Positions 1-24,787 of a stretch of DNA of 56,653 nucleotides are shown piece after piece; positions within the stretch are counted from its first letter, which is position 1; every line of letters starts with the position of its first letter. The notes below the pieces were generated by a model. It did no database searches. It saw only the letters and a list, made by a program, of their open reading frames with translations, and was not told the DNA's origin. Origin of the DNA: Betaproteobacteria bacterium (GTDB lineage: Bacteria; Pseudomonadota; Gammaproteobacteria; Burkholderiales; JACQAP01); NCBI GenBank assembly GCA_031406075.1, contig JANOGP010000413.1:1-56653 (forward strand), read 5' to 3'. The position numbers and the translations under genes were made by a program.

Positions 1-513
1 CATCTCGCGATTGCCTGTGGCGGCGACCAGCGCGCCGTGAAAGGCTTCGTCCAGCGCGCACACCCGCTCCCCGTCGTCGAGCCTTGCATCCGCTGGCACC
101 AGCCAGACGGATTTCAGTTCCTCCAGGTTGGGGCGGTCGGCCTGATCGCAGAGCTGTTTCACCGCGGCGGTTTCGAGCGCGATGCGCAGGTCGTACAGAT
201 CGTCAAACTGCTTGAAATCGAGTTCGCGAACGCTCCAGCCGCTGCGAAAGTGCACCTGCAGGTAGCCCTCGCGCTCCAAACGGTAAAGCGCTTCGCGCGC
301 CGGGGTGCGGCTGACGTTCAGCCGCCCGGCGACCTCGTTCTCGGTAAAACGATCCCCGGGCAGCAGGCGGAAATCGAAGATGTCTTGCTTGATGCCCAGA
401 TACACCGACTCGGCAAGCGACGGTTTACGTTCCTCTTCGACCGCGACCGTTCTGCGTTTGCCGGCGGCAGGACCGGGGCTCCGCGGCCGGCTGCGATCGT
501 CCTTCCGCTTCAA
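1..513 (-). CDS. GntR-family (FadR/FCD-type) transcriptional regulator; C-terminal end lies outside the window
   Basis: Absent from the ORF track because it runs off the window edge. Reverse translation from TTG at 513 gives SLAESVYLGIKQDIFDFRLLPGDRFTENEVAGRLNVSRTPAREALYRLEREGYLQV (GntR winged HTH). This is followed by DDLYDLRIALE...LDEAFHGALVAATGN (FCD-like effector domain). The TTG overlaps the atzF stop (TTGA). Start codon is uncertain. Confidence 0.75.
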   Translation of the reverse strand, partial: MKRKDDRSRPRSPGPAAGKRRTVAVEEERKPSLAESVYLGIKQDIFDFRLLPGDRFTENEVAGRLNVSRTPAREALYRLEREGYLQVHFRSGWSVRELDFKQFDDLYDLRIALETAAVKQLCDQADRPNLEELKSVWLVPADARLDDGERVCALDEAFHGALVAATGNREM

Positions 514-2306
514 CGTGCAGCCTTGCTGGCGAGATATTCGCGCCAGCCGCCGAGGTGCGTTATCTCCTCGGCGCCGTTCACCGCCCAACTCTCGCACAGA
601 AAACCCTGGACCCACTCGCCGTCGTCGAGTTCGACGCGCCCGATTCCCAGCGGTGACGGGATTCCGGCAACGAACGAACCGTATTCGGCCACGGGCAGTC
701 GCCAAACCTCGACGGCGATGACGCTGCCATTGTCGGCATCGCGAACCAGGCCGGGCTTCGGCGGCGTCGTGCCGGGCAGTGCGAATAGCCGGTAGCGGGA
801 GGCGGTGCGTGCCGATTGTTCCAGCCGCGCACCGCGCTCGGTCAGTTGATGGTTGAGCGGCAGTCCCGACAGGTGTGCCCCGACCACGGCCACGCGCACG
901 GTGTCGTCGCCGGTGATGATCGGCGCGGGCGGCGGCAGCACTTCGTCCAGTGCGCCGAGCTTGAGCCCGGTCAGATGATGGAAGCGCTGCGCGAGATCCG
1001 CGAGCATGAGGTCGTTTCCCGCCGGCGCGACCAGCGTGATGCCGAAAGGCAGGCCATCCGGACGTATCGAGCCTGGAACCGCGCAGGCGGCGAGGTCCAT
1101 GAGGTTCACGAAATTGGTGTAGTGCCCGAGCCTGCGATTGTTCAGGAACGGTTCGTCGAGCACCTCTTTGATCGTGTAGATGTTCGGTGCGGTCGGCACC
1201 ACAAGCACGTCGGCCCGGTCCCAGAGTCCGGCGGCGCGCTTTTTCAGCGCCTCCAGCTTCGTCAGCCCGGTGAAAAGATCCGCAGCCGAAAACTTTGATG
1301 CCCCCTCGATGATTTTGCGTACTACAGGGTGTAACTGATCGGGACGGCTTTCGAAGAACGCACGGATTGCCGCCAGCCGTTCCGCCACCCACGGCCCTTC
1401 GTAGAGCAACGCCGCGGTTTCCAGGAACACCGAGAAATCTACGCCGACCGGCCGGCCGCCGAGGCCCTCGAGCTTGTCTACTGCGTCATGAAACGCGTGC
1501 CTTGCGTGGTCGTCGCCGTGGAATTCGAGCGGCTCGGGAAGCGCGAAAGTGAAGCGCTCGGGCAGCGCCGGGACGGACAGATCGAGTGCACGCGACCAGG
1601 GGTCATCCGGATCCGGGCCACGCGCCGCGCCGAGTACCGCGATAGCGTCGGAAACCGTGAGCGCGAACACCGATACGCAGTCCAGTGACTGGCAGGCGGG
1701 CACGACGCCGCGGGCGCTGATCAGGCCGCGGCTCGGTTTCAAGCCGACAATGTTGTTGAATCCCGCCGGTACCCGGCCCGACCCAGCGGTATCGGTTCCA
1801 AGCGCGAAGCTCACCTGGCCACGGGCGACCGTGACCGCGGAGCCGGAACTGGAGCCTCCGGAGATATACTCCGGCCGGAATGCGTTGGGAACTGCGCCGT
1901 AGGGCGAGCGCGTGCCCACCAGTCCAGTGGCGAACTGGTCCAGATTGGTCTTCCCGACCAGGATGGCGCCGGCCGCCTCGAGTTTCTCCACCACGGTGGC
2001 GGAGCGTTTGGGAACGTAGGAAAAGGCCGGACACGCCGCAGTTGTCGGCATTCCCGCAACGTCGATGTTGTCCTTGACCGCAAACGGGACCCCGTACAGC
2101 GGCAGGCGGTCAATTACGCGCGCATCCTCGCGCAGCATTTGTTCGAGATTGCGGGCGCAACGGGCCAGTGCGTCGGCGCCGACCCTGCAGATCCAGGCGC
2201 AGGCATAGGCCTCATCGTTCCCGGACTGCAGTGATTTCAACACTGCGCCGGGTGTAAGCTTGCCCGACCGGTAATCGGCGAGCAGCGAAGGTATGGTCAT
2301 GGACAC
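510..2306 (-). CDS. atzF: allophanate hydrolase (amidase-signature family, AtzF-like)
   Basis: 598-aa ORF with amidase-signature block YISGGSSSGSAVTVARGQVSFALGTDTAGSGRVPA. It also has the extra C-terminal ~130-aa domain typical of allophanate hydrolases. Start is GTG 2306 or ATG 2300. Confidence 0.85.
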   Translation of the reverse strand: MSMTIPSLLADYRSGKLTPGAVLKSLQSGNDEAYACAWICRVGADALARCARNLEQMLREDARVIDRLPLYGVPFAVKDNIDVAGMPTTAACPAFSYVPKRSATVVEKLEAAGAILVGKTNLDQFATGLVGTRSPYGAVPNAFRPEYISGGSSSGSAVTVARGQVSFALGTDTAGSGRVPAGFNNIVGLKPSRGLISARGVVPACQSLDCVSVFALTVSDAIAVLGAARGPDPDDPWSRALDLSVPALPERFTFALPEPLEFHGDDHARHAFHDAVDKLEGLGGRPVGVDFSVFLETAALLYEGPWVAERLAAIRAFFESRPDQLHPVVRKIIEGASKFSAADLFTGLTKLEALKKRAAGLWDRADVLVVPTAPNIYTIKEVLDEPFLNNRRLGHYTNFVNLMDLAACAVPGSIRPDGLPFGITLVAPAGNDLMLADLAQRFHHLTGLKLGALDEVLPPPAPIITGDDTVRVAVVGAHLSGLPLNHQLTERGARLEQSARTASRYRLFALPGTTPPKPGLVRDADNGSVIAVEVWRLPVAEYGSFVAGIPSPLGIGRVELDDGEWVQGFLCESWAVNGAEEITHLGGWREYLASKAAR

Positions 2307-2327
2307 TGCGTTCCCCCGTGTGGCATC

Positions 2328-2349
2328 TTGTATACTAGCAAGTATACCA
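2328..2349. promoter_or_regulatory. putative GntR operator: imperfect 22-bp palindrome with two GTATAC cores
   Basis: TTGTATACTAG|CAAGTATACCA is symmetric in 9 of 11 positions about 2338/2339. It sits in the 74-bp divergent spacer between atzF (start 2306) and the hydrolase operon (start 2381). It fits the GT-Nx-AC type sites used by GntR-family proteins. Confidence 0.4.
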
Positions 2350-2380
2350 AGCGATGCTCTAATCAGTCAGGAGGATAAAA

Positions 2381-3052
2381 ATGGCAACCAAGGCGATCGA
2401 GGCTGAACCGTACGAAATGGAATTCGACCCGAAGACCACTGCGCTGCTGATCATCGACATGCAGCGCGACTTCGTCATGCCGGGAGGATTCGGCGAGGCA
2501 CTTGGTAACGACGTCACCCCGCTGCAGGCGACTATCGCGCCGACCAAGCGGGTGCTGGAGGCGGCGCGCAAGAAGGGGATGCTGGTCATCCACACCCGCG
2601 AGGGCCATAGACCTGACCTAACCGACTGTCCGCCGACCAAGCTGGTGCGGGGCAGGGGAAAGACGCGAATTGGCGATGCCGGGCCGATGGGACGCATCCT
2701 GGTGCGCGGGGAGATCGGCCACGACATCGTGCCGGAACTGTATCCCGCGCCCGGGGAGCCCGTGATCGACAAGCCCGGCAAAGGCGCGTTCTACGCCACG
2801 GACCTCGAGCTGATTCTGCGTGATCGCGGCATCAAGACGCTGATCGTGTGCGGCGTGACGACCGAAGTCTGCGTCAACACCAGCGTGCGCGAAGCCAACG
2901 ACCGCGGCTATGAATGCGTGGTGCTCTCCGACTGCGTGGGGTCATATTTCCCGGAGTTCCAGAAAGCCGCGCTCGCGATGATCAAGGCCCAGGGCGGCAT
3001 CTTCGGCTGGGTATCCGACTCGCGCCGCGCGCTGGCCGCGCTCGGTGCGTGA
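2381..3052 (+). CDS. isochorismatase-family cysteine hydrolase, biuret hydrolase (BiuH)-like
   Basis: 223 aa with Asp/Lys/Cys triad contexts [20 protein letters not shown] and [22 protein letters not shown] is GGAGGA 7 nt upstream. The BiuH-like call rests on adjacency to allophanate hydrolase; substrate is not provable from sequence. Confidence 0.75.
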
Positions 3053-4067
3053 GAACAGGTACACGGCGGCGCGGCGCGTTTCCGGTGGTTCGGTGACAGA
3101 CAACGGGGAGGTCTTGTTTGCAGACAGCGTCGGCGCGCGCGTGCCGCCGCGCGCCCGCGCGCAAGTACACAGCGTTTTCCTGCGCGCATTCAACATCGAA
3201 ACGGATTCCGGCGAGCTGGTTACCTTACTCGCGCCGGGCTCCGGCAATCTCCCGCACGGGATCCGCTGCGCCTCGCCGATCGCGCCGTTTCGCGCTTGGC
3301 TGCGGCAGGGACAATCGGCGATTCTCGAAGACGCCACCTTGTGCATTTCGGCTGCGGGTTTCGTGGTGGATCTCTCCCGTGCCGCAATCTGGGACGGAAC
3401 GGTCGCCGCCGCGTTACCCGGACTGCGCGGCGCGGTGCCGCAAGGAGCGCTCCGCGAATTGTGCGGGACGCTGCGTGAGCGCGCGCCGGATCAGGGCGTC
3501 GCGCCGGCGCTGTTCTCCTCCGCAAGCCCTCGCTCGACGCTCGAACGCGCGTTGGTTGCGCGCATGGCTCAAACGCTGCCGAGGCTGGCGCGCGCGACCG
3601 AAACAAGCGATGCTGGCGCCGTCGTTTCGGCGATAAGCGCGCTGGTGGGCCTCGGCACCGGGCTCACGCCGGCGGGAGACGACTTCATCGTCGGTTATCT
3701 CGCGGCGCTGTGGAGCCGCGCGCACCACGAATCCGGTATGGCAGCGCTGTTGAGCGCGCTCGCGGTACCTGTCGGGCAGTTGTCGCTGGGTACCAACGCG
3801 ATCAGCCGCCAGATGTTGCTCGATGCGCTACAAGGTCATTTCGCGGAGCGCCTGACCGAAGTGGTGCGCTGCGTTTGCGGTGGCGGCGACATCGCTGGTG
3901 CCACCATGCGGGCCCTGGAGGTCGGACACAGTTCGGGAGCGGACGCTTTGTGCGGGCTGCTGTTTGGATATTCGCCAACGCCGACCGCGAGGCGGATCCA
4001 GGCCGCCGCGACAGATATTCATTTCCGCGTTTGCCATGCCGAGCGCGCGGCGGCGATCGCCTGTTGA
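3045..4067 (+). CDS. ylbF: DUF2877 protein (YlbF/AllH-like)
   Basis: 340-aa ORF with [23 protein letters not shown] and [11 protein letters not shown] blocks as in DUF2877. It sits directly upstream of fdrA, as in the fdrA-ylbE-ylbF gene sets. The GTG start at 3045 overlaps the preceding stop by 8 nt; start is uncertain. Confidence 0.65.
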
Positions 4068-4083
4068 CCCGGGAGAAAAGGTT

Positions 4084-5658
4084 TTGTCGGCCACACTGGT
4101 AAAAATCGTGCCCAGGGAATACCGGGACTCGGTCTCGCTGATGCAGCTGTCCGCGTTGCTGGGGAAGCTACCCGGCGTGGAGCAGGCTTCCGCAGTGATG
4201 GCCACCGAGAACAACCTGGCATTGCTCGCGGAAGCGGGGCTGCGCGTCGATGCGAAAGGCGCGAGCGCGAGCGACTTGATGATCGTGGTGCAGGGAGAGA
4301 AGTCGGCACTGCCTGCCGCGATCGAGGAGGCGATGAAGAGCCTCACGCGGCAGACCGAGGATACCGGCGGCGAGGCGCGGGCCGCGCTGCGCCCGCGCAG
4401 CGTCCAGATGGCGCTGAAGACGACGCCGGAAAGCAACATGGTGCTCATATCCACGCCGGGGGACTACGCCGGGGCCGAAGCGATGAAAGCGCTGCGCCTC
4501 GGTCTGAATGTGATGTTGTTCAGCAACAATGTCTCGGAGGAGGAAGAGCTCCTGCTCAAACGTTTCGCGCGCGATTCAGACCTTATCGTCATGGGCCCGG
4601 ACTGCGGCACCGCGATAATCAACGGGACACCGCTCGCCTTTGCCAACGTGGTGAATCGTGGCCCCATAGGCGTGGTTGGCGCCTCGGGCACCGGGTTGCA
4701 ACAGGTCACCGTGCTGGTGGACCGGCTGGGCTCGGGCATCTCGCAGGCGATCGGCACCGGCGGGCGCGATCTGCACCGCGATATCGGCGCAATCTCGATG
4801 CTCAAGGGGTTGAAGGACCTGGCCGCGGATCCGGCGACCCGGGTCATCGTGCTGATATCCAAACCGCCCGCTCCCGAAGTGGCCGAGCGCGTACTCGCCG
4901 AGGCGGCCAAGGCCGGCAAGCCGGTGGTGGTGAACTTCCTCGGCACCGATCCCAAGCAGGTCGGGCGCAAAGGCGTGCACGCCGTGAAAACGCTGGAGGA
5001 TGCCGCGCGCGCGGCCGTCGCCTTTGTCAAGGGCGAAAAGCCGCGCGACAGTTACGCCGAAGCGCCTGCGGCGCAGTCCGGGCTGCCAAGCTTCGGCGAC
5101 ACGCAGCGCTATGTTCGCGGGCTCTACAGCGGCGGCACGTTCTGCTACGAGGCCACATTGCTGCTCGGCGAACTCCTGGGCGACGTCCATTCGAATACGC
5201 CCACGCGCGGCACCGCGGAACTGGCCGACGTCTGGCAAAGCCGGCAGCACACGCTGGTCGACCTCGGAGACGACGTCTTCACGCGCGGGCGTCCGCACCC
5301 GATGATCGATTACCGCTTGCGCACCGAGCGCATCGGCAAGGAGGCGGAGGATCCGGAGACCGCCGTGATCCTGCTCGACGTGGTGCTGGGATTTGGCAGC
5401 CACATGGACCCCTCGAGCGAACTGGTGCCGGCGATCCATCGTGCCCGCGCGACCGCGTCTGCGCAGGGAAGAGCCATTGCCTTCGTCGGCCAGATCTGCG
5501 GCACCGCCGCCGATCCGCAGGATTTTGCCCGGCAGGCGCGGGCGCTTGCCGACGCCGGCATGCTGTTCGCCGATAGCAATGCGCAGGCGGTGCGTCTCGC
5601 GGCCGGCATCGTCTCGACGCTCGCCCCATCGCAGGCCCAGCGCTTGCGCAAATCGTAA
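4084..5658 (+). CDS. fdrA: FdrA/AllF-like protein (succinyl-CoA-synthetase-alpha-like fold)
   Basis: N-terminus VKIVPREYRDSVSLMQLSALL matches the FdrA N-terminus type. Also has GPDCGTAIINGTPLAFANVV, IGVVGASGTGLQ and AIGTGGRD blocks. I chose TTG 4084 (GGGAG 8 nt upstream) rather than the track start 3880, which overlaps the DUF2877 gene. Confidence 0.85.
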   Translation: MSATLVKIVPREYRDSVSLMQLSALLGKLPGVEQASAVMATENNLALLAEAGLRVDAKGASASDLMIVVQGEKSALPAAIEEAMKSLTRQTEDTGGEARAALRPRSVQMALKTTPESNMVLISTPGDYAGAEAMKALRLGLNVMLFSNNVSEEEELLLKRFARDSDLIVMGPDCGTAIINGTPLAFANVVNRGPIGVVGASGTGLQQVTVLVDRLGSGISQAIGTGGRDLHRDIGAISMLKGLKDLAADPATRVIVLISKPPAPEVAERVLAEAAKAGKPVVVNFLGTDPKQVGRKGVHAVKTLEDAARAAVAFVKGEKPRDSYAEAPAAQSGLPSFGDTQRYVRGLYSGGTFCYEATLLLGELLGDVHSNTPTRGTAELADVWQSRQHTLVDLGDDVFTRGRPHPMIDYRLRTERIGKEAEDPETAVILLDVVLGFGSHMDPSSELVPAIHRARATASAQGRAIAFVGQICGTAADPQDFARQARALADAGMLFADSNAQAVRLAAGIVSTLAPSQAQRLRKS

Positions 5659-5675
5659 CGCGGCATCCAAACGCG

Positions 5676-7115
5676 ATGAACAAGCTGTTCCAGGAAAATC
5701 GGCCTCTGATCAATGTCGGATTGCAGTCGTTCGCCGATTCCATCGTGGCGGCCGGGGGCAGGGCGGTGCAATTGGACTGGACGCCTCCCGCCGGGGGTAA
5801 CCGCGCGGCAGGCTGGTGCCTGGCGCAGTTGTTGAATCATCCATCGCTGGAAGCTGCAAACGAAAAAGCGTACGCCGCATTCCTGGCCGCGCAGCCTGTG
5901 CTTGCCGGGATCGGTGTAGCGCGCGAGAATCTGCCCGATATGGGTGAGCGCATGATCCTGCACGCCGGACCGCCGATCGCGTGGAAAGAAATGTGCGGGC
6001 CAATGCGGGGAGCGGTGATTGGCGCGATCCTGTACGAAGGCTGGGCAGCGGACGCGGACGCGGCCGGGCGGCTGGCCGGCAGCGGCAGCATCGCTTTCGA
6101 GCCGGCGCATCATCACGCCGCGGTGGGCCCGATGGCCGGGGTCATGAGCCCGTCGATGCCGGTATGGATCATCGAGAACGCAGCGGGCAAAAACCGCGCG
6201 TTTTCCAACCTGAACGAGGGCCTCGGCAAGGTGCTGCGCTTCGGCGCAAATTCACCGGAAGTGATCAAGCGCCTGCACTGGATGGCGCAGGTCCTTGCGC
6301 CAGCCCTCGCCGCGGCGCTCGCGAAACTGGGACCGATGGAACTCAAGCCGCTCATCGCGCAGGCGCTGCAGATGGGCGACGAAGTCCACAACCGCAATGC
6401 GGCCGCGTCGTCGTTGTTCCTGAAAAAGATCGTGCCCGCGGCGCTGTACTCCGGCTTCGACGCGCCCGCGATCGCCGATGCGGTGACGTTCATCGCCGGC
6501 AACGATCACTTCTTCCTGAACCTGTCGATGGCGGCATGCAAGACCATGCTCGATGCCGCGCACGGCGTGCCGGACAGCAGCCTGGTCACCGCGATGTCGC
6601 GCAATGGCGTGCGCTTCGGCATCCGCCTTTCTGGGACCGGCGAACAATGGTTCGAAGCGCCCTCCCCGGTGGTGGGCGGACTGTACTTCCCGAGCTACGG
6701 AGCAGAGCACGCGGCGCCGGACATGGGCGACAGCTCGATTACCGAGACCGCGGGCCTCGGCGGCTTCGCAATGGCCACGGCGCCCGCCATCGTCCAGTTT
6801 GTCGGCGGTACCCCTCAGGACGCAATCGCCAATACGCGCGAAATGCGGCACATCACGCTGGGACGCAACAGCGCATTCACGCTGCCGGCGATGAATTTCA
6901 GCGGCACGCCCGCCGGCATCGATGCCCGCCGCGTGCTCGATACCAACATCACGCCGATCATCAATACCGGCATCGCGCACAAGGAAGCCGGAGTCGGCCA
7001 GATCGGCGCCGGCATCACGCGCGCGCCGCTCGAGTGTTTCACCCAGGCCATCATCGCGCTGGCCTCACGGGTCGGCGTCGGCATGCCCGGCAGCATCCGC
7101 TCCACACCCTCATAG
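5676..7115 (+). CDS. ylbE: DUF1116 protein (YlbE/AllG-like)
   Basis: 479-aa ORF starting 17 nt after fdrA. N-terminus INVGLQSFADSIVAAGGRAVQLDWTPPAGGN and length fit DUF1116 proteins encoded next to fdrA. Confidence 0.8.
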   Translation: MNKLFQENRPLINVGLQSFADSIVAAGGRAVQLDWTPPAGGNRAAGWCLAQLLNHPSLEAANEKAYAAFLAAQPVLAGIGVARENLPDMGERMILHAGPPIAWKEMCGPMRGAVIGAILYEGWAADADAAGRLAGSGSIAFEPAHHHAAVGPMAGVMSPSMPVWIIENAAGKNRAFSNLNEGLGKVLRFGANSPEVIKRLHWMAQVLAPALAAALAKLGPMELKPLIAQALQMGDEVHNRNAAASSLFLKKIVPAALYSGFDAPAIADAVTFIAGNDHFFLNLSMAACKTMLDAAHGVPDSSLVTAMSRNGVRFGIRLSGTGEQWFEAPSPVVGGLYFPSYGAEHAAPDMGDSSITETAGLGGFAMATAPAIVQFVGGTPQDAIANTREMRHITLGRNSAFTLPAMNFSGTPAGIDARRVLDTNITPIINTGIAHKEAGVGQIGAGITRAPLECFTQAIIALASRVGVGMPGSIRSTPS

Positions 7116-7126
7116 AGGAGATCGCG

Positions 7127-8080
7127 ATGGCCAAGCGCAAACATACGGCGGTCGTTGCTGTCGGCGGCAATTCGCTGATCGTGGACGATCAGCACCAGTC
7201 GATACCTGACCAGGTGAAGGCGGCGACGACAACATCGCATTACGTCGCCGACATGGTCGAGGCCGGCTGGACGGTAGTCCTCACGCACGGCAATGGCCCG
7301 CAGGTGGGATTCATCCTGCGCCGCTCGGGAATCGCGAAGGGCGTGGTGCCGGAGGTGCCAGTGGACTACGCCGACGCCGACACGCAGGGTGCGATCGGCT
7401 ACATGTTCCAGCGCGCGCTCTACAACGAGTTCCAGCGCCGCAAGCTCAAGCGCAAAGTGGTGGCCGTGGTCACCCAGGTGCTGGTGGATCCGGGCGATCC
7501 CGCATTCCGCAGTCCGACCAAACCGATCGGTGCGCACATGACCGAGGACGTGGCCAAGTCGCTGGCGGACGATCTCGGCTGGGTCGTGAGGGAAGATGCC
7601 GGCCGCGGCTGGCGGCGTGTGGTCGCCTCGCCGATGCCGCAGCAGATCATCGAGCACGACATCATTGAGGCGCTGATCGACCTGGGCTACATCGTGATCG
7701 CCTGCGGTGGCGGCGGCATTCCGGTGCTGCGCGACGCGCAGGGCGACCTGCAGGGCCTCGAGGCGGTGATCGACAAGGACTTCGCCTCCAGCCTCCTGGC
7801 ACGCGACCTCGGCGCCGAACTGTTCGTGGTTTCCACGGGCGTGGAGAAAGTGGCGATCGACTTCGGCAAACCTACGCAACGCTGGCTTGAACGCATTACC
7901 CTGGCGGAGGCGCGCAAATATCTTGCCGATGGCCAGTTCCCGAAGGGAAGCATGGGCCCGAAGATCGAGGCCATCAATTCATTTCTGGAAGGCGGCGGCA
8001 CGCGCGCCATGATCACCAATCCGCCCAATCTCGGGCGCGCGCTATCCGGCGCCACAGGCACGCATATCGTGCCCGCCTGA
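7127..8080 (+). CDS. arcC: carbamate kinase (ArcC/AllK-like)
   Basis: 317 aa from ATG 7127 (GAGGAG RBS). Motifs are AVVAVGGNSL, LTHGNGPQVG and IACGGGGIPV. The track ORF 5981-8080 is this frame extended upstream through ylbE. Confidence 0.9.
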   Translation: MAKRKHTAVVAVGGNSLIVDDQHQSIPDQVKAATTTSHYVADMVEAGWTVVLTHGNGPQVGFILRRSGIAKGVVPEVPVDYADADTQGAIGYMFQRALYNEFQRRKLKRKVVAVVTQVLVDPGDPAFRSPTKPIGAHMTEDVAKSLADDLGWVVREDAGRGWRRVVASPMPQQIIEHDIIEALIDLGYIVIACGGGGIPVLRDAQGDLQGLEAVIDKDFASSLLARDLGAELFVVSTGVEKVAIDFGKPTQRWLERITLAEARKYLADGQFPKGSMGPKIEAINSFLEGGGTRAMITNPPNLGRALSGATGTHIVPA

Positions 8081-8112
8081 GCGCCGGATTGCGCGGCTGC
8101 GCTGCTTAAACT

Positions 8113-9648
8113 CTATGCCGCCGAGGTCTGGCGCGACATTGCCAGGCAGAGCGCACCGAACATGACGTAACCGAGCGACACCAGCGGCGAGACCATCCAG
8201 CCCAGAGCCGGCCCGTGTATCAGACCGACAAAGGCCAGTGCCGCGCCAATGAATGCCGTCACCGCGGCGTGCGAGAGCTTGCGGTCGATGATGAATGCCG
8301 CCATCGCACCCAGCACCATGCCGGCCAGCACCGATCCGCTGCCGAGCACCGCGAGCCCCTGATAGACCACGCCGACCTGCCCGAGCGCGGCCATGCCGAC
8401 TTTGTCGGCGCTGGTGCCGGCAGCGCCCAGCGCACCGTCGATATTGATCTTTGCCCACTCGGCGATGTTCGGAATGATCGCCAGCACCACCGCAGGCGCG
8501 TGCTTGGCAGGGCTCGCCTGAAATGCCTGCGCACCGATCACCAGGCCGATGTAAAGCAGGATCGGCAGGATCGCCACCAAGGGGATCAGGTTGAGCAGTA
8601 GTGCGGTGAGGCCGAGGAAACACACCAGCGCAATCGCCACGCCGGTGGCGAGCGAGTAACCGATGCGGCCGCCCACCGATTTCCAGCCCGGATGGCCGAT
8701 GTAGACCGCGGGCGGGAACGGGCTTCCCAGCATCGAACCCACGATCGCCCCGATGCCGTCTGCCGCGAGAATTTTGCGCAGGTTGTAATTATCCCCTGCC
8801 GCCGAGGCGCTTTCTACGTTGTTCATCGCCTCGGTGAAGTTGTAGATTCCCAGCGGGATGGCCGTGGCCAGCAGTGGCGCGATTCCGGCGAGGCCGCGGA
8901 ACACATCTGCCGAGAACCACGGCAGGTGCAGGCCGAATTGCTCGAAGGCCGCGCCGACCTGATCGCCTTTCATGTAGTCGCTCCAGCCGAACGCAGCCGC
9001 GAGCCAGCCGATCGCGGCGCCGACAAGCACCGCCGCGAGGCCGCCGGGAATTCCACCAGGCAGGCGGATGTTCGCGGTCCAGGCTATCAGCACGATAGCG
9101 AAACAGACGAAGCCGATCCATGGCACTTCCCACATCTGGAATGCCGGGCGCATCGAGATGAAGGCGATGGAGATGCCGGCCAGCGTGCCGAGCATCGCCG
9201 CGCGCGGCGTCATTTTGCGGATCCACGGCCCGACGAAACACCCCAGCAGCACGATCACGCCGATGATGAAGGCCCAGGCCAGCCCCGCTGCATAGGCAAT
9301 CATCGGGTCCTTGGTGGCGAGGTAGGTGGGCAACATCACCACCAGCACCACGATGAACATGTGTGGAACGCTGGGCCCGTAAGGCATCGCCGTGACGTCG
9401 GAGCGGCCCTCCTTCTTCGCCATTTGCCACGCGAGGTAGGCGTAGAACAGGTTGCCGATCGGCAGCGCGATACCCAGTGCCGGCAGCACGCGCCCGTAGA
9501 CCGTGTCGGGCGGAAGTTGCACCACGTAAAGGCACAGCGTGGTCAGGACGATGACATTGAGCAGAACGTTTGTGAAAAGACCGAAGAAGCCGTTCCAATC
9601 GCCCGGCACCCACCAGCGTGGGCTTGCAGCAGATCCGGCAGCACTCAT
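8113..9648 (-). CDS. NCS2/AzgA-superfamily-like permease (substrate unknown)
   Basis: 511 aa, strongly hydrophobic throughout (multi-pass). The C-terminal block LAADGIGAIVGSMLGSPFPPAVYIGHPGWKSVGGRIGYSL resembles the T.YIES..G...GGRTGL block of AzgA-type purine permeases. Convergent with arcC. Confidence 0.6.
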   Translation of the reverse strand: MSAAGSAASPRWWVPGDWNGFFGLFTNVLLNVIVLTTLCLYVVQLPPDTVYGRVLPALGIALPIGNLFYAYLAWQMAKKEGRSDVTAMPYGPSVPHMFIVVLVVMLPTYLATKDPMIAYAAGLAWAFIIGVIVLLGCFVGPWIRKMTPRAAMLGTLAGISIAFISMRPAFQMWEVPWIGFVCFAIVLIAWTANIRLPGGIPGGLAAVLVGAAIGWLAAAFGWSDYMKGDQVGAAFEQFGLHLPWFSADVFRGLAGIAPLLATAIPLGIYNFTEAMNNVESASAAGDNYNLRKILAADGIGAIVGSMLGSPFPPAVYIGHPGWKSVGGRIGYSLATGVAIALVCFLGLTALLLNLIPLVAILPILLYIGLVIGAQAFQASPAKHAPAVVLAIIPNIAEWAKINIDGALGAAGTSADKVGMAALGQVGVVYQGLAVLGSGSVLAGMVLGAMAAFIIDRKLSHAAVTAFIGAALAFVGLIHGPALGWMVSPLVSLGYVMFGALCLAMSRQTSAA

Positions 9649-9906: not shown

Positions 9907-10767
9907 ATGTCCACTGCGATCAGGATCATGCAGGGCAGCTTCGGCCGTGTCGCCCTGCTCGACATGGACAAGCCACTGGTCACGCACGCTCACCACCATT
10001 GCCACATTCTGCTGAAGGCGAGCGGGGCGGATTCCCGGTTCACGGTGCGCGGGCGCATGCAGCCGCTGACCGCTGCCAGCGCCGTGCTGGTAAATGCCTG
10101 GGAACCGCACGCGTATACGCCGCTGGACGAGTCGCTCCGCGGAACGGTGATCCTGGCGCTCTATATCGATTGCACCTGGCTTGCCGGCATCCATCGGCAG
10201 CTCGCGGTGGCCGGCCATCCGCACTTCTTCTCGCAGCCCTGCGTGCCGATCACGCCGGCGATCCGCAAGCGCGCCGACGATCTGGCAGCCGAGATGACTT
10301 GTCAGCCGGACATTGCGCCGGCGCGTCTCGATCAGCAATTGTCCGGACTGGCGATCGCGGTGCTCGATCCTTTCTCGGAATGGCGCAATGCCGGCAGCCT
10401 GGTGCGCGCCGGATTACCCCGTGCGCCCGATGCGCGCATCCGCCGCGCGATGGGTTACCTGCAGGAGCACATTACCGAGGGCATAGGCATGGACGCACTG
10501 GCCTCGCGGGCCTGTCTGTCGCGCGCGCATTTCTTCGCGCTGTTCCGTAAGTACACCAGCCTTTCTCCCGGGGTGTACGCCAATGCGCTGCGCATGGAGG
10601 CCGCCATCGGCGAACTCGGTTACGGTGACCGGCCCATGGCGGAGATTTCGCACGGTCTCGGTTTTTCCGCACAAAGCCATTTCACCCGCTTCTTCCGCCA
10701 ACACCTCGGCATTACCCCTACCGACTACCGCCGCAAGGCCAGCGTGCTGACCGCAGCCGGGTCTTAG
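9907..10767 (+). CDS. AraC-family transcriptional regulator
   Basis: 286 aa with a C-terminal double HTH: MDALASRACLSRAHFFALFRKYTSLSPGVYANALRMEAA...ISHGLGFSAQSHFTRFFRQHLGITPTDYRR. Confidence 0.85.
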   Translation: MSTAIRIMQGSFGRVALLDMDKPLVTHAHHHCHILLKASGADSRFTVRGRMQPLTAASAVLVNAWEPHAYTPLDESLRGTVILALYIDCTWLAGIHRQLAVAGHPHFFSQPCVPITPAIRKRADDLAAEMTCQPDIAPARLDQQLSGLAIAVLDPFSEWRNAGSLVRAGLPRAPDARIRRAMGYLQEHITEGIGMDALASRACLSRAHFFALFRKYTSLSPGVYANALRMEAAIGELGYGDRPMAEISHGLGFSAQSHFTRFFRQHLGITPTDYRRKASVLTAAGS

Positions 10768-10983
10768 GTTCGGGGCCGGGCCGCGAGACCCCGCCAAATA
10801 ATTGCAGGGCGCACGACGACCGGGGACAGAATCGCTTCCTGCTCCGTGGCCTGTGCGTTCTCTGCGGTTCAAGGTCGTGCCGTCGAAAAATCGGACTCCA
10901 GGGTAAATCCGCGCCCCCATGGCCAGGGAACCGCGGCACTCGCGGGCTTAGACTTCCTGCAATCAGCCAGCAAGGATGGTCAA

Positions 10984-13900
10984 GTGGTGAATCCGCCAAA
11001 CCCGTTTGCAAGCGAAGCCGCACCCGTACCGTCCACTCGCTGGACGGGACTGCCGGTCGAGCGCCGGGAAGACGCGGCGCTGCTCACCGGCACCGGCCGG
11101 TTCGCCGACGACCTCGGCGTTCTTCCGGACACGCTGCATGCGGCCTTCGTCCGCTCACCGCACGCGCATGCGCGCGTGAACGGCATCGATGCCTCCGCCG
11201 CGCTTGCATCTGCCGGTGTTCGCGCGGTGCTCACCGGCGAGGACGTCAAACGCTGGGGTGCGCCGTTTGTGGTCGGCGTAAAAGCGCCGATGCAGCACTG
11301 GTGCCTGGCGCTGGACAAAGTGCGCTATGTCGGCGAACCGGTGGCGCTGGTGGTCGCAGAGAACCGCTACCTCGCGGAGGATGCAGCCGACCTGGTGCGC
11401 GTCGAATATGCGCCGTTGCCGGTGACGGTCGATATCGAACACGCTGCCGCGAACGGCGCGCCGCTGCTGCACGACGCAGTGGGGTCGAACGTGATCAGCG
11501 ACCGCAGTTTCGTCTACGGCGATCCCGATGCCGCGTTCGCAGCCGCGCCTCATCGCGTGCGCCTCAAAGTGCGCTACCCGCGCAACTCCTGCACCCCAAT
11601 CGAGGGATTCGTCGCGGTAGCCGAGCACCTCGCCGGCGACGACGGCTACGATGTATTGTCGAATTTCATGGGGCCGTTTTCGCTGCACGCGGTAATGGCG
11701 CTCGCGCTCAAGGTGACGAGCAACAAACTGCGCCTGCGAATGCCGCGCGATTCCGGCGGCAGTTTCGGCGTCAAGCAGGCGATCTTCCCTTACCTGGTGG
11801 CAATCTGCCTGGCCTCGCGCAAGGCCGGCGCGCCGGTGAAATGGGTGGAGGACCGCCTCGAGCATCTTGTCGCCGCTACATCCGCCACCGGCCGCGTCTC
11901 CACGATCGAGGCCGCGGTCGAGCGCGACGGCCGCATTCTTGCGCTTGCCTACGACCAGTTGGACGACGTCGGCGGCTACCTGCGCGCGCCGGAACCGGCA
12001 ACGTTCTATCGCATGCACGGCTGCCTGACCGGTGCCTACGACGTGCAGCATCTGCGCGTGCGCAATCGCGTCGTGGTGACCAACAAGACTCCCGCAGGCC
12101 TGGTGCGCGGCTTCGGCGGGCCGCAGGTCTATTTCGCGCTGGAGCGCCTGATCAACCGGATCGCCGTGGAACTGAACCTCGATCCCGTCGGGGTGTACTT
12201 GCGCAATTTCGTTCCACGCAATGCCTTCCCTTACCGTGCGCCGGCGGGGGCGCTGATCGACTCCGGCGACTATCAGGGCGCACTCGAACTTGCATCCGTG
12301 GAGGGCGGGCTGGCCGATTTGCGGAAGCGCCGTGACCAGGCGCGCGCCGAAGGCCGACTCTACGGCATTGGCTTTGCCGCCATCGTCGAGCCGTCGATCT
12401 CGAGCATGGGTTACATCACTACGGTGATGAGCAGGGAGGCGCGCGCCAAGGCCGGCCCGAAGAGCGGTGCCATTGCCACCGCCACCGTCGGCGTCGATCC
12501 GCTCGGCGGCGTCAATGTCTCGGTGGCCTCGGTACCGCAAGGTCAGGGACACATCACGGTGCTGACGCAAGTGGTGGCCGACGTGTTCGGCCTCAGGCCC
12601 GGGGACATCGCGGTCGATGTCGAGCTCGATACCCGGAAGGACGCCTGGTCAGTCGCCTCCGGCAATTACTCCAGCCGCTTCGCCGGCGCGGTGGCCGGCG
12701 CCGCGCATCTCGCCGCGATACGCCTGCGCGCGAAACTCGCAGTCATTGCGGCGGCGCAATTCGGATGCCACGAGGGCGACATCGTGTTCGAGAACGCCAG
12801 GGTTTTCCCGCGCAGCGAACCTGCAAGGGCGGTTGCGTTCACGCGCATGGCCAGCGGGCCGCACTGGGCGCCGGCACTGCTGCCTCCCGGCGTTGAGCCG
12901 GGACTGCGCGAGACTGCCTTTTGGACACCGGAAGTGCTCGCCGCGCCCGACGAACAGGACCGCATCAACACCTCCGCGGCCTACGGCTTCGTTTTCGACA
13001 TCTGCGGGCTCGAGATCGACCGCGCGACCGGCAAGGTGCGCGTCGATCGCTACGTCACCACGCACGACGCCGGAACGCTGCTCAATCCCGCGCTCGCCGA
13101 CGGACAGATCCGCGGCGGTTTTGCGCAGGGATTGGGTGCCGCGCTGATGGAACAATTCGCCTACGCGCCGGACGGCGCTTTCCTCTCCGGCACTTTTGCG
13201 GACTACCTGGTGCCGACCGCGATGGACGTGCCGGAGCCGGTAATCGTTCACATGCAAACGCCGAGCCCGTTCACGCCGCTGGGCGCCAAGGGACTGGGCG
13301 AGGGCAACAACATGAGCACCCCGGCCTGCATCGCCAACGCGATCGCGGATGCGCTCGGTCCCGCGGTCGATCCCGAATCGATCGTGCTGCCGATGACGCC
13401 ATCGAAAATCCTTGCGCTCATCGGCATGCCTGATCCGCCGCCGGCTGGGCGGGCGCGCAGCGACACGCCGCGGCGGCCGGGCAGCGGGCAGGCGCTGGTC
13501 ATGTCCGGTGCGGTCGAACTGGTGGCGTCCCCTGAGGCGGTGTTTGCAGTGCTGCTCGATCCGGCGGCACTCGCCTCGGTGATTCCGGGTTGCCACGAAC
13601 TCAAGGCTGTCGGCGAGAACCGTTATGCCGCCGAGCTCACGCTCGGGATCGGACTGGTGAAAGCGCGGTACGCCGCCGAAGTGGCGCTCTCCGAGATCGA
13701 CCCGCCGCGCTCGCTGAGATTGGCCGGGCGCGGCATCGGATCGCTCGGCGCCATCGAGGGCAGCGGCAAGGTGAAGCTCGTTCCCGCCGGCAGCTTCACC
13801 CGGTTGGAATACGAATACGAAGTGGCGGTGAGTGGCAAAATTGCAGCGGTCGGCGGGCGCATGCTCGAAGGCGCGGCGCGGGTGATTCTCGATCAATTGT

Positions 13901-14004
13901 TCGAGCGGCTCGGCCGACGTGCGCTGCGTCGAAAAGAAGGCGGCCCCGGAGAACGCGCCGGCTTCTGGCAACGCCTGCTGCGCGTGTTGCGGATGACACG
14001 ATGA
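10984..14004 (+). CDS. molybdopterin hydroxylase large subunit fused to a C-terminal CoxG/SRPBCC domain; HmfA (2-furoyl-CoA dehydrogenase)-like
   Basis: N-terminus GLPVERREDAALLTGTGRFADD is the CoxL/XDH-family type. The last ~170 aa (VELVASPEAVFAVLLDPAALASVIPGCHELKAVGENRYAAELTLGIGLVKARY...) look like CoxG. I prefer GTG 10984 (AAGGA 7 nt upstream) to the track start 10846. Confidence 0.8.
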   Translation: MVNPPNPFASEAAPVPSTRWTGLPVERREDAALLTGTGRFADDLGVLPDTLHAAFVRSPHAHARVNGIDASAALASAGVRAVLTGEDVKRWGAPFVVGVKAPMQHWCLALDKVRYVGEPVALVVAENRYLAEDAADLVRVEYAPLPVTVDIEHAAANGAPLLHDAVGSNVISDRSFVYGDPDAAFAAAPHRVRLKVRYPRNSCTPIEGFVAVAEHLAGDDGYDVLSNFMGPFSLHAVMALALKVTSNKLRLRMPRDSGGSFGVKQAIFPYLVAICLASRKAGAPVKWVEDRLEHLVAATSATGRVSTIEAAVERDGRILALAYDQLDDVGGYLRAPEPATFYRMHGCLTGAYDVQHLRVRNRVVVTNKTPAGLVRGFGGPQVYFALERLINRIAVELNLDPVGVYLRNFVPRNAFPYRAPAGALIDSGDYQGALELASVEGGLADLRKRRDQARAEGRLYGIGFAAIVEPSISSMGYITTVMSREARAKAGPKSGAIATATVGVDPLGGVNVSVASVPQGQGHITVLTQVVADVFGLRPGDIAVDVELDTRKDAWSVASGNYSSRFAGAVAGAAHLAAIRLRAKLAVIAAAQFGCHEGDIVFENARVFPRSEPARAVAFTRMASGPHWAPALLPPGVEPGLRETAFWTPEVLAAPDEQDRINTSAAYGFVFDICGLEIDRATGKVRVDRYVTTHDAGTLLNPALADGQIRGGFAQGLGAALMEQFAYAPDGAFLSGTFADYLVPTAMDVPEPVIVHMQTPSPFTPLGAKGLGEGNNMSTPACIANAIADALGPAVDPESIVLPMTPSKILALIGMPDPPPAGRARSDTPRRPGSGQALVMSGAVELVASPEAVFAVLLDPAALASVIPGCHELKAVGENRYAAELTLGIGLVKARYAAEVALSEIDPPRSLRLAGRGIGSLGAIEGSGKVKLVPAGSFTRLEYEYEVAVSGKIAAVGGRMLEGAARVILDQLFERLGRRALRRKEGGPGERAGFWQRLLRVLRMTR

Positions 14005-14822
14005 AACCGGCAGCCTTCGATTACATCCGCGCCGACACGGCAGACGAAGCGGTCGCTGCCCTGGCCGAATACGGCGACGATGCGCGCATTCTTGCCGGCG
14101 GGCAGTCGCTAATGGCGATCCTGAACATGCGGCTGGCGCAGCCGAAAGTGTTGATCGACATCCATCGCACCGGCGATCTGTCGGGAATCGAAGCCCGAAG
14201 CGACCGGCTGCGCGTGCGCGCGGCGGTGACGCAGGCCGGGCTCGAGCGCCATCCGCGAATCGAAAGCCTGGTGCCGCTACTGGCGCAGGCTCTTCCGCAT
14301 ATTGGCCATTTCCAGACACGCAACCGCGGCACGGTTTGCGGCTCGATCGCGCACGCCGACCCAGGCGCCGAACTGCCGCTGTGCCTGGCCACGCTCGGGG
14401 GCGAAGTGGTGCTGCGCTCGAAGAACGCGCGGCGCACCATGGCGGCACAGGATTTCTTTACCGGCATGCTGCAGACCGCGCGCACTCCGGAGGAGATGGT
14501 CGAAGAAGTGTGCTTTCCGTTGGCGTGCGACGGCGAGCACCACGGATTCATCGAAGTATCGATGCGCCACGGCGATTTCGCGGTGGTCGCGCTGGCCGCG
14601 GTGGCGGGCGCGGACGGCATTCGCCTCGGCGTCGGTGGCGTCGCAGACCGTGCGCAGGTCGCGCGCTGGCCTCGGCTGCGGGGCGCCGCGCTCGACGAAG
14701 CTCTCAACCAGCTTGCCTGGGATCTCGGCGCTCAGGATGACCAACATGCCTCCGCTGCCTACCGCCGGCACTTGGTGCGTACCCTGGGACGGCAACTGAT
14801 CGACAAGATGGACGCGCCGTGA
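14001..14822 (+). CDS. molybdopterin hydroxylase FAD-binding subunit (CoxM/HmfB-like)
   Basis: MKPAAFDYIRADTADEAVAALAEYGDDARILAGGQSLMAILNMR is the typical FAD-binding PCMH-type N-terminus. ATG overlaps the large-subunit stop (ATGA). Confidence 0.85.
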   Translation: MKPAAFDYIRADTADEAVAALAEYGDDARILAGGQSLMAILNMRLAQPKVLIDIHRTGDLSGIEARSDRLRVRAAVTQAGLERHPRIESLVPLLAQALPHIGHFQTRNRGTVCGSIAHADPGAELPLCLATLGGEVVLRSKNARRTMAAQDFFTGMLQTARTPEEMVEEVCFPLACDGEHHGFIEVSMRHGDFAVVALAAVAGADGIRLGVGGVADRAQVARWPRLRGAALDEALNQLAWDLGAQDDQHASAAYRRHLVRTLGRQLIDKMDAP

Positions 14823-14832
14823 CGAGCACACC

Positions 14833-15342
14833 ATGAAACGACTCGCACAAGGCACCCTGCATCGCTTGGATATCACCCTGAACGGCACGCGTCGCAGCGG
14901 CCACTGCGAGCCTCGCACGCTGCTTTCGGATTTCCTGCGCCAGGAACTCGGCGCCACCGGCGTGCACGTCGGTTGCGAGCACGGCGTGTGCGGCGCCTGT
15001 ACGGTGCGGGTGAATGGCGTGGCGCAGCGCTCCTGCCTGGCTCTTGCCGTCAGCGTGGATGGACAGAGCATCGGAACCGTCGAGGGGCTGGCCGCGGACG
15101 ATGGCACGTTGTCCGACCTGCAGGCCGCATTTCGCCGCCACCATGCGCTGCAATGTGGATTCTGCACGGCGGGCATCCTGATGTCGGCGGCGGAATTTCT
15201 GGAGCGAGTGCCGGAACCGGACGAAGGGCAGGTGCGCGAGATGCTCTCGGGACATCTGTGCCGCTGCACCGGTTACACCAACATCGTGCGGGCGATCCTC
15301 GAAGTCGCCGCAACACGTCGCGATGAGGTCAACCGTGCTTGA
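14833..15342 (+). CDS. molybdopterin hydroxylase [2Fe-2S] subunit (CoxS/HmfC-like)
   Basis: 169 aa with two Cys clusters: GCEHGVCGACTV and CGFCTAGILMS...LCRCTGY. Confidence 0.9.
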   Translation: MKRLAQGTLHRLDITLNGTRRSGHCEPRTLLSDFLRQELGATGVHVGCEHGVCGACTVRVNGVAQRSCLALAVSVDGQSIGTVEGLAADDGTLSDLQAAFRRHHALQCGFCTAGILMSAAEFLERVPEPDEGQVREMLSGHLCRCTGYTNIVRAILEVAATRRDEVNRA

Positions 15343-16888: not shown

Positions 16889-16906
16889 ATCATTGGAGGT
16901 ACCGAC

Positions 16907-17710
16907 ATGACCATCAAACATCCATCGGCCGGTTTGCCCGACCAGCAAGACGGCTTCCGCATCGAAGTGGATGCGGCGCGAAGACGCGCCGACATCATAC
17001 TGGACCGCCCACCGCTCAACGTGGTGAGCATGCCGCAGCGCGATCAATTGCGCTGCGCCTTCGAGGCGCTCGATGCGCATCCGGACGTACGGGTCATCGT
17101 ATTGCGCGCCGTCGGCGAAAACTTTTCCAGCGGCGGAGACATCAGGGGATTCCTCGAGGCCAGTCCCGAGAAGGTTTCAAAACTGGCCTGGAACATCGCC
17201 GCGCCTGCGCGCTGCGAAAAGCCGGTGGTCGCGGCCAGCCGTGGCTATTGTTTCGGGGTTGGCTTCGAAATCGCGCTCGCCTGCGATTTCCGCATCGCCT
17301 CGGTCACAGCGCTCTTTGCGCTGCCGGAGCAGAAGCTCGGGCAGATTCCAGGCTCGGGCGGTTCGGCGCGGCTGCAGAAGATGGTGGGCATTGGGCGCAC
17401 CAAGGACATCGTGATGCGCTCGCGCCGCATCCCGGCGAAACAGGCCTGCGACTGGGGCGTGGTCACCGAGTGCGTGCCCGATGCCGAGCTCGAACGCGCC
17501 ACCGACGCGCTGGTCGAGGAACTGCTCGCCTTTTCGCCGCTAGCGCAACGCACCGCCAAAAAGCTCCTGAACGACACCGAGGATTCGACGCTGTCGATCG
17601 CGATCGAACTCGAAGGGCATTGCTACAGCCGGCTGCGCTCCTCTGAGGATTTTCGTGAAGGCGTCACCGCCTTTCACGCCAAGCGCAAGGCCGAATTCAA
17701 GGGCAGTTGA
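16907..17710 (+). CDS. enoyl-CoA hydratase/isomerase (crotonase) family protein (HmfE, 2-oxoglutaroyl-CoA hydrolase-like)
   Basis: 267 aa with crotonase blocks NFSSGGDIRGF and GYCFGVGFEIALACDFRIAS. RBS is GGAGG. Confidence 0.8.
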   Translation: MTIKHPSAGLPDQQDGFRIEVDAARRRADIILDRPPLNVVSMPQRDQLRCAFEALDAHPDVRVIVLRAVGENFSSGGDIRGFLEASPEKVSKLAWNIAAPARCEKPVVAASRGYCFGVGFEIALACDFRIASVTALFALPEQKLGQIPGSGGSARLQKMVGIGRTKDIVMRSRRIPAKQACDWGVVTECVPDAELERATDALVEELLAFSPLAQRTAKKLLNDTEDSTLSIAIELEGHCYSRLRSSEDFREGVTAFHAKRKAEFKGS

Positions 17711-24781: not shown

Positions 24782-24787
24782 TCGCGA

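Follow-up and report, generated by a model that had tools for sequence, protein, structure and literature searches.

We examined a 56.6-kb stretch of DNA from a soil member of the Burkholderiales (contig JANOGP010000413.1, 56,653 nucleotides; hereafter, the window), the first 9.65 kb of which carry a compact, divergent arrangement of eight genes (positions 1–9648) that includes a cysteine hydrolase, an allophanate hydrolase, a three-subunit complex related to oxamate carbamoyltransferase and a carbamate kinase. The gene neighbourhoods of this complex suggest that ATP is probably made while urea-condensation compounds are degraded. On the minus strand, a GntR/FCD-family regulator gene cut by the start of the window (1 to about 513; Pfam GntR, 58.8 bits, and FCD, 40.3 bits) lies 3' of the gene for the allophanate hydrolase AtzF (510–2306, same strand), which combines an amidase-signature domain with an AH_C domain (TIGR02713, NF006043, Pfam Amidase and AH_C). 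A candidate GntR operator with two GTATAC boxes (2327–2351; boxes at 2330–2335 and 2342–2347) precedes five genes read from the plus strand: a TrtA-type cysteine hydrolase of the isochorismatase family (2381–3052; typed by PF00857, PDB matches and signature residues), an AllH/DUF2877-like subunit (3045–4067; Pfam AllH, PF11392, 85.8 bits), an AllF/FdrA-like subunit with CoA_binding and Ligase_CoA domains and a TTG start (4084–5658; NF004760, 506 bits, cut-off 433), an AllG/DUF1116-like subunit (5676–7115; Pfam AllG, PF06545, 318 bits) and a carbamate kinase (7127–8080; NF009007, 386 bits, cut-off 266). The gene for a 511-residue permease (8113–9648, minus strand), assigned only at the level of a 7+7 UraA-type fold in a predicted model, completes the set and is convergent with the kinase gene.

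Direct reading of the DNA showed that the hydrolase and allH genes overlap by 8 nucleotides (nt), with a GTG start at 3045 and a stop codon at 3050–3052—an overlap that indicates co-expression of the two genes—and that allH–allF, allF–allG and allG–kinase are separated by 16, 17 and 11 nt, respectively. Other possible AllH starts exist (GTG at 3093, TTG at 3114), and position 3045 is favoured because the N-terminus is conserved in translation in close relatives. Together with Pfam and NCBIfam searches, these results bear out the genes, coordinates, order, overlap and spacings given in an earlier interpretation made from the letters alone (hereafter, the sequence-only reading). Its remark that allantoin genes are missing likewise held across the 56.6-kb window, where tblastn searches with E. 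coli AllA, AllB, AllC, AllD, AllE and GlxK returned only weak AllB-like matches, all of them on urease alpha genes. In a close relative, a Burkholderiales metagenome-assembled genome (MAG) with a 775-kb contig, the same eight genes occur and both flanks differ, so that the eight genes behave as a conserved unit. An exact-sequence look-up of the hydrolase gave no match, and a 98% relative (P0046) supplied the flanks for comparison. The arrangement is more than chance: at least 29 species-level genomes carry this gene set, which occurs in three gene orders. A recent mobile insertion of the cluster was considered and rejected, the GC content being uniform (0.65 over 0–16 kb).

The cysteine hydrolase belongs with triuret hydrolases

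The hydrolase has the isochorismatase-like fold of PF00857 (171 bits), and its closest match in the PDB is TrtA of Herbaspirillum (6XIX, 284 bits), followed by the generalist RhdBiuH of Rhodococcus (261 bits) and BiuH of Rhizobium (245 bits). Against the BiuH equivalog model NF050097 it scored 290 bits, under the cut-off of 370. The catalytic triad (D26, K131 and C164) aligns with D24, K129 and C162 of TrtA. The second-shell residues that set substrate length are F35, N41, E160, Q202 and I205 in TrtA, and Y, Y, D, Q and V in BiuH (PMC7948467); all five TrtA-specific residues are present in the window hydrolase, as F37, N43, E162, Q204 and I207. With a score under the BiuH cut-off, the five TrtA residues and TrtA as the best structural match, the label 'BiuH-like' attached to this protein in the sequence-only reading has to be given up, and by its sequence the enzyme is classed as a triuret-hydrolase (TrtA) type. 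TrtA converts triuret to 1-carboxybiuret, with an activity on biuret that is 10^4-fold lower, and the carboxybiuret so formed breaks down to biuret, half of it within about 20 min (PMC7948467). As the window hydrolase is TrtA-type and not BiuH, its expected product is carboxybiuret. The gene adjacent to it is atzF, and no BiuH-type gene was found in the 56.6-kb window.

A carbamoyltransferase-like trio outside the E. coli lineages

In E. coli, allF-allG-allH-allK encode an oxamate carbamoyltransferase and its kinase (PMC11326118, PMC9843812), and the sole characterised member of this family acts on oxalurate (PMC11326118). E. coli K-12 also holds a second, paralogous set, yahE-yahF-yahG-yahI, together with the amidohydrolase gene yahJ. 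The FdrA, DUF1116 and DUF2877 families are encoded in the window by three adjacent genes, with the kinase gene 11 nt downstream of allG. The window subunits are 39, 48 and 29% identical to E. coli AllF, AllG and AllH (kinase to AllK, 36%), and 45, 46 and 25% identical to YahF, YahG (over its full length) and YahE (kinase to YahI, 50%). The kinase scores 351.8 bits against the arcC equivalog TIGR00746, just under its cut-off of 358.25. Judged by these identities, the trio is no nearer to AllFGH than to YahEFG and is not orthologous to E. coli AllFGH, and both AllG and YahG of E. coli fall outside the clade that contains the window AllG in a neighbour-joining (NJ) tree. Because the trio is no nearer to the All set than to the Yah set and lies in a separate clade, a substrate cannot be transferred to it by orthology.

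The subunit boundary sets the two E. coli systems apart as well. A 55-residue N-terminal segment of the window AllG (5676–5840) corresponds to the C-terminal tail of E. coli AllF/FdrA and matches positions 507–547 of the FdrA model, and the head of YahG likewise corresponds to the AllF tail. From these alignments (5676–5840 in the window and 18200–18348 in locus L001), the boundary between the F and G subunits has moved within the family. The window shares with E. coli AllFGH-AllK the same three families side by side with a carbamate kinase next to them and, presumably, the chemistry, i.e., phosphorolysis of an N-acyl-urea to carbamoyl phosphate followed by substrate-level ATP formation. It differs in gene order (H-F-G-K instead of F-G-H-K), in carrying the 55-residue AllF tail as the head of AllG, and in its partners—a TrtA-type hydrolase and AtzF stand beside the trio, where allD, allC and allE do not. 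The Yah set has the H-F-G-kinase order and the F/G boundary of the window, shows a slightly higher identity to it than the All set does, and also comes with a hydrolase gene; however, YahJ belongs to the metal-dependent amidohydrolase family and not to the isochorismatase family, neither AtzF nor AH_C accompanies the set, and YahG lies outside the window's clade.

The trio clade keeps a constant set of partners

To place the cluster in a broader context, one genome per species was scanned, which yielded 565 AllG-encoding stretches; the best 80 of these were analysed, with reference proteins mapped onto the AllG loci by tblastn and an NJ tree built for AllG. The window AllG belongs to a distinct clade of this tree, with at least 61% identity to the window protein, that takes in many Burkholderiales MAGs, Alphaproteobacteria (including a Sphingomonadaceae MAG), Neisseriaceae bacterium TC5R-5, Paraburkholderia sp. 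J63 (L034), an Atlantibacter MAG, Casimicrobiaceae and Nitrospira sp. RSF12 (L019). Two further loci, L033 and L036, appear as long branches outside the clade; both are merged tblastn regions with frame breaks, their best segments are 87–88% identical to the window, and their tree position was treated as an artefact.

All 29 clade loci untouched by contig ends encode a hydrolase with the full TrtA signature, and all 29 also hold H, F, G, carbamate kinase, a transporter and an AH_C domain alongside. AllD, AllC, AllE, AllB and AllA were not found by tblastn in any of the 38 clade loci, nor did any clade locus contain a gene for oxalurate production (AllD) or oxamate consumption. Three gene orders were distinguished: that of the window; one in which H, permease, hydrolase and AtzF share a strand and F-G-K occupies the opposite one; and one in which H-F-G-K is followed by a stand-alone AH_C protein of 129–138 residues. 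The core—TrtA-type hydrolase, H-F-G, kinase and AH_C—is kept in Beta-, Alpha- and Gammaproteobacteria and in Nitrospira, while the transporter varies among the window's permease family, an NCS1 permease and a Bmp-type ATP-binding cassette (ABC) system. A regulator gene is present in architectures A1 and A2 and in the Nitrospira locus.

The remaining AllG loci, at 50–56% identity (Anaerolineae, Clostridia, Bacteroidota and others), are without a kinase gene. Downstream of H-F-G, this sister clade has a PF04199 'putative cyclase' and either a family III CoA-transferase or molybdenum-hydroxylase subunits, and upstream of it a PucR regulator and an amidase; such loci were seen in Anaerolineae (L043–L050, L055, L056, L061 and L065) and in Bacteroidota/Ignavibacteriota (L042, L045, L046, L053, L062 and L074). 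This setting is different from that of the window and is apparently an undescribed heterocycle-degradation context for the trio, which evidently serves several heterocycle or ureide pathways as a module.

Interchangeable modules beside TrtA-type genes

As a control approached from the hydrolase side, we collected the 80 metagenome loci nearest to Herbaspirillum TrtA and typed each cysteine hydrolase by the five residues described above. In about 44 of the 80, a BiuH-type gene lies directly upstream of the TrtA-type gene, and none of these loci has the trio; they usually include a Bmp-type ABC transporter, AtzF and a GntR regulator, i.e., the published triuret operon. Two loci (L161 and L162) combine a TrtA-type gene with H, F, G, kinase, AH_C and the window's permease family, without BiuH. 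Four others (L154, L157, L113 and L095) combine it with the same permease family, AtzF, an AtzE-family amidase (NF006631; 715 and 690 bits) and an AtzH/HpxZ-like protein (194 bits). Two of these, L154 (185–5641) and L157 (2510–6766), look like the carboxybiuret route of Pseudomonas sp. ADP fed with triuret, a combination of which we found no description.

Counting the TrtA-type loci of both samples that have at least 2.5 kb on each side, a BiuH-type gene occurs in 2 of 26 trio-bearing loci and in 25 of 31 trio-free loci (Fisher p = 2e-8, uncorrected for shared ancestry), so BiuH and the trio are nearly mutually exclusive beside TrtA-type genes. The window's permease family flanks TrtA-type genes in trio-free loci too (L154, L157 and L163), and the Bmp-type ABC transporter likewise serves TrtA loci without the trio; transporters track TrtA rather than the trio. 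Locus L011, from a Betaproteobacteria MAG, has atzF reduced to a remnant (6249–6650; residues 1–60 and 520–597) and a separate pair of BiuH-type and TrtA-type genes 1–4 kb upstream. A 140-residue DUF4440/SnoaL protein encoded upstream of the L034 hydrolase was considered as a TrtB or AtzH counterpart and set aside, as it had no AtzH match in the PDB and occurs in L034 only.

Allophanate hydrolase and its stand-alone C-terminal domain

AtzF of the window scores as a full allophanate hydrolase equivalog (TIGR02713, 809 bits with a cut-off of 511; NF006043, 845 bits), with both PF01425 and PF21986, full-length matches to the Granulibacter allophanate hydrolase structure 4GYR (565 bits) and to 4ISS, and the motifs GGSSSGS and KDNID in its translation. 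About one-third of the clade loci, including those of Nitrospira, Neisseriaceae, Paraburkholderia and Atlantibacter, have a stand-alone AH_C gene only (PF21986, 132–133 bits), placed after the carbamate kinase gene. Examples, all of 129–138 residues, lie at 18652–19047 in L019, 12382–12798 in L023, 2760–3155 in L026, 5077–5466 in L022 and 12449–12832 in L034. Loci of the clade can thus do without the amidase domain of AtzF, and the stand-alone AH_C proteins are 63–74% identical among Neisseriaceae, Atlantibacter, Burkholderiales and Nitrospira. They read NGTLMRG where fused AtzF has GAH(L/M)SG, and the His of the fused form is absent; because of this replacement, the chemistry of the stand-alone protein may differ from that of the fused one. 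Fan et al. (2013, J Biol Chem) reportedly proposed a decarboxylase role for AH_C. Disposal of oxamate by AtzF or by the hydrolase, an option raised in the sequence-only reading, was rejected: AtzF has the score of a true allophanate hydrolase equivalog, and about one-third of the loci keep only the non-amidase C-terminal domain.

Permease, regulator and divergent spacer

The permease had no match in Pfam (E up to 10, including PF00860), in NCBIfam or among PDB sequences. A local hhalign match to E. coli AdeP covers 50 columns of the signature region (E = 0.007), while the permease profile gave no significant match to two NCS2 proteins (probability 0.5%). In Foldseek, all top matches of the predicted model have the 7+7 UraA fold (SLC26Dg, BicA, UraA, SVCT1 and AZG2; TM-scores 0.4–0.5), and they mix SLC26, SLC4 and NCS2 members, the model being mediocre (pLDDT 61). 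JGI names its homologues 'AGZA family'. An unclassified family with a 7+7 UraA-type fold, distantly related to AzgA/NCS2, is thus a plausible description; the earlier term 'NCS2-like' stands at the level of the predicted fold and of the local AdeP match, and finds no counterpart in Pfam or PDB sequence searches. The permease is a probable importer of the pathway substrate.

The GntR/FCD regulator, truncated in the window, is 237 residues long in relative L002. The divergent spacer between atzF and the hydrolase gene measures 74 nt, and the two GTATAC boxes in it are spaced by 12 nt. Their block shows little or no variation among 12 relatives, unlike the remaining spacer; a minus-strand, −10-like TATACT overlaps the block. 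The boxes are a plausible GntR operator.

A proposed route from triuret to ATP

Triuret-type condensed-urea compounds arise as an impurity of urea fertiliser and from the oxidation of urate or cyanurate. Starting from the gene identities, signature residues, clade structure and conserved neighbourhoods observed here, we infer the following substrates and reactions for the hydrolase, the complex and the permease. The permease would import a triuret-type compound, from which the TrtA-type hydrolase would remove one terminal amide to give 1-carboxybiuret (H2N-CO-NH-CO-NH-COO−). The AllH/AllF/AllG-like complex would then transfer the terminal carbamoyl group of carboxybiuret to inorganic phosphate (Pi), yielding carbamoyl phosphate and allophanate—a step parallel to that of oxalurate with Pi, which gives carbamoyl phosphate and oxamate. 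Carbamate kinase would convert carbamoyl phosphate and ADP to ATP, NH3 and CO2, AtzF would degrade allophanate to NH3 and CO2, and the GntR/FCD protein would control the divergent promoters through the GTATAC boxes. Complex and kinase would in this way stand in for what other bacteria employ between TrtA and AtzF, namely BiuH, alone or with TrtB, or else AtzE and AtzH, and one ATP would be recovered per molecule.

Several considerations point to carboxybiuret as the substrate. It is oxalurate (H2N-CO-NH-CO-COO−) with one inserted NH; it is the closest oxalurate analogue and would best fill the pathway gap. Its phosphorolysis products would balance exactly against the CO2 and NH3 that the hydrolytic routes give off. 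Known routes lead from TrtA to AtzF either by decarboxylation and BiuH or by AtzE and AtzH, and in the clade that position is held by H-F-G and kinase. Moreover, in the AtzE and AtzH families, enzymes that act on carboxybiuret (AtzE and AtzH themselves) occur beside others that act on oxalurate (HpxY and HpxZ) (PMC12625717), which gives precedent for homologues switching between these two substrates. We consider it somewhat more likely than not that an N-carboxy-ureide derived from triuret, be it carboxybiuret or allophanate, is phosphorolysed by the complex. That the complexes of the whole clade are carboxybiuret (or allophanate) phosphorylases which, with the kinase, would yield substrate-level ATP from triuret and possibly from carboxybiuret derived from cyanuric acid, falls slightly short of even odds. 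To the specific proposal of a single eight-gene regulon that serves a triuret-type ureide, in which the complex would phosphorolyse carboxybiuret and the kinase would make ATP, we assign a probability of roughly 0.4. The sequence-only reading had proposed a biuret-family ureide and energy conservation, which fits the clade, the gene linkage and the near-exclusivity with BiuH. Of the substrates it named, allophanate is possible and biuret is less likely; carboxybiuret, which fits best, was not among them.

A number of observations weigh against this proposal. The identity of the hydrolase reaches only about 61% with the assayed TrtA and 57% with a generalist BiuH, and the activity of the clade is deduced from neighbourhoods in a family whose only characterised member uses oxalurate (PMC11326118). 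The AH_C-only loci are without a nearby allophanate amidase, so they encode no consumer in the vicinity for allophanate made by the complex. There, allophanate could be cleaved by the complex as well or deamidated by the hydrolase; otherwise AtzF is encoded elsewhere, or AH_C has another role. Both L011 and the Nitrospira locus L019 carry BiuH as well as the trio. In L163, a TrtA-type gene, the permease and AtzF occur with no middle module within 9 kb; the middle module is perhaps not obligatory, e.g., where the hydrolase is a triuret/biuret generalist. Finally, our counts cover loci, and BiuH or AtzF may be encoded elsewhere in the respective genomes.

Three other explanations were weighed against the carboxybiuret proposal. 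Two independent pathways could simply be co-located, with the complex acting as an ordinary oxamate carbamoyltransferase that draws on imported oxalurate and leads to excreted oxamate, and with the hydrolase and AtzF processing triuret or biuret separately. This is how the same co-location has been read in comammox and archaeal ammonia-oxidiser genomes (PMC12625717), and it agrees with the oxalurate-specific function of the only assayed family member (PMC11326118) and with L163, in which TrtA and AtzF stand without a middle module. A shared regulon for scavenging purine nitrogen is also conceivable, given that both compounds can derive from urate oxidation. However, the hydrolase and allH genes overlap within one operon, the triuret branch would be without BiuH in 24 of 26 trio-bearing loci when BiuH is present in 25 of 31 trio-free ones, and each locus has one transporter, of a type common to trio-free TrtA loci. 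With neither AllD nor an oxamate-consuming gene in any clade locus, and with the clade separate from E. coli AllG, we regard two unconnected pathways as unlikely, if still a serious contender.

It is also conceivable, if rather improbable in our judgement, that the complex phosphorolyses allophanate (with Pi, to carbamoyl phosphate and carbamate) or biuret (giving urea), with a triuret/biuret-generalist hydrolase, AH_C as a decarboxylase of carboxybiuret or 1,3-dicarboxyurea, and the AtzF amidase domain as an optional bypass. Such a scheme would employ every conserved core member (hydrolase, AH_C, H-F-G and kinase), and it would account both for the dispensable amidase domain in about one-third of the loci and for the 63–74% identity of stand-alone AH_C across distant taxa, which indicates selection. 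Nitrospira, with BiuH, TrtA, AH_C and H-F-G-K and without the amidase, would fit, and two urease gene sets 14–29 kb away in the window could use urea derived from biuret, though other lineages show no conserved urease genes close to the cluster. Against it stand the full signature of TrtA, an ultraspecific enzyme that is 10^4-fold less active on biuret (PMC7948467), and the window-type loci, where AtzF and the complex would compete for one substrate; decarboxylation of carboxybiuret by AH_C is itself only putative, the stand-alone form being without the His of the fused one. The physiological substrate may, lastly, be neither triuret nor oxalurate, instead being a different N-rich ureide of triuret-like length. 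The identities to assayed enzymes (61% to TrtA, 39–48% to AllF and AllG) are moderate, the permease family is uncharacterised, sister trio clades occur in quite different heterocycle contexts (PF04199 cyclase, CoA-transferase III, molybdenum hydroxylases and PucR), and the pairing of the Yah paralogue with an amidohydrolase of undefined substrate speaks for a versatile module. Even so, the full equivalog score of AtzF, the complete TrtA signature, and the association of the same permease family with TrtA/AtzE/AtzF sets that match the known carboxybiuret route make such a substrate quite improbable.

Genes surrounding the cluster

Between the permease gene and a DUF6607 gene, the window contains (9907–17710) an AraC regulator, a 1052-residue fusion of a CoxL-type molybdenum hydroxylase with CoxG, a 2Fe-2S subunit, an AMP-dependent ligase and an enoyl-CoA hydratase. 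Because DUF6607 follows the permease directly in the close relatives L007, L016 and L028, this block of about 8 kb looks like an insertion specific to the window genome. Further on, 14 kb from the cluster, a second nitrogen-scavenging island (22438–37955) comprises two urease sets—ureA/B/C at 22438–24781, and UreE, UreF, a gamma-beta fusion, alpha and UreG at 33308–37955—that flank an AmiR/ANTAR regulator, a Peripla_BP_5-type amide/urea ABC transporter and an aliphatic-amidase-like CN-hydrolase. The GC content drops to 0.56 at 28–32 kb of the window.

Relation to known systems and implications

The TrtA-(TrtB)-BiuH-AtzF pathway of Herbaspirillum sp. BH-1 and Rhizobium (PMC7948467) shares with the window the catalytic triad and specificity residues of the hydrolase, the allophanate hydrolase and the GntR regulator. 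It differs in that the window has H-F-G and kinase where BiuH and TrtB would be, and a permease with a predicted UraA fold in place of a Bmp-type ABC system. The AtzEG-AtzH-AtzF route of Pseudomonas sp. ADP (PMC6219798) resembles our proposal in leading from carboxybiuret directly to allophanate, with biuret bypassed, and its TrtA-linked relatives (L154, L157 and L113) have the window's permease family and AtzF; however, that route is purely hydrolytic, conserves no energy, and employs an amidase-signature enzyme and an NTF2-like protein instead of H-F-G.

In October 2025, allFGHK was reported to be co-located with biuH, trtA and atzF in comammox Nitrospira and ammonia-oxidising archaea, and was read as part of adjacent oxalurate and triuret/biuret pathways; trtB was missing, and decarboxylation was suggested to be spontaneous or due to an unknown enzyme (PMC12625717). 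The association is the same as that described here, and Nitrospira sp. RSF12 (L019) falls inside the window's AllG clade, whereas the window lineage consists of heterotrophic Burkholderiales with no BiuH in the window and a full AtzF. None of the papers that we found couples the two functionally or puts forward carboxybiuret or allophanate as a substrate of the complex. New in the present study are the definition of the clade, the TrtA typing, AH_C as a conserved partner, the three interchangeable middle modules and the near-exclusivity with BiuH.

If the proposal is true, bacteria would have in the complex and kinase a third way to carry out the carboxybiuret step, one that conserves energy, beside TrtB/BiuH and AtzEG/AtzH, which would explain why trtB and biuH are missing from such clusters. 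It would also bring a second substrate specificity to a family of three-subunit transcarbamylases that was given a function only in 2024, and for oxalurate only. The family would then represent a general 'ureide phosphorolysis plus ATP' module joined to different upstream hydrolases, offering a lead for the unexplained yahEFGIJ cluster of E. coli. Triuret, biuret and cyanuric acid stem from urea fertiliser, triazine herbicides and urate oxidation. For abundant soil Burkholderiales and comammox Nitrospira, a yield of ATP besides ammonia would alter the view of the costs and benefits of using these nitrogen sources.

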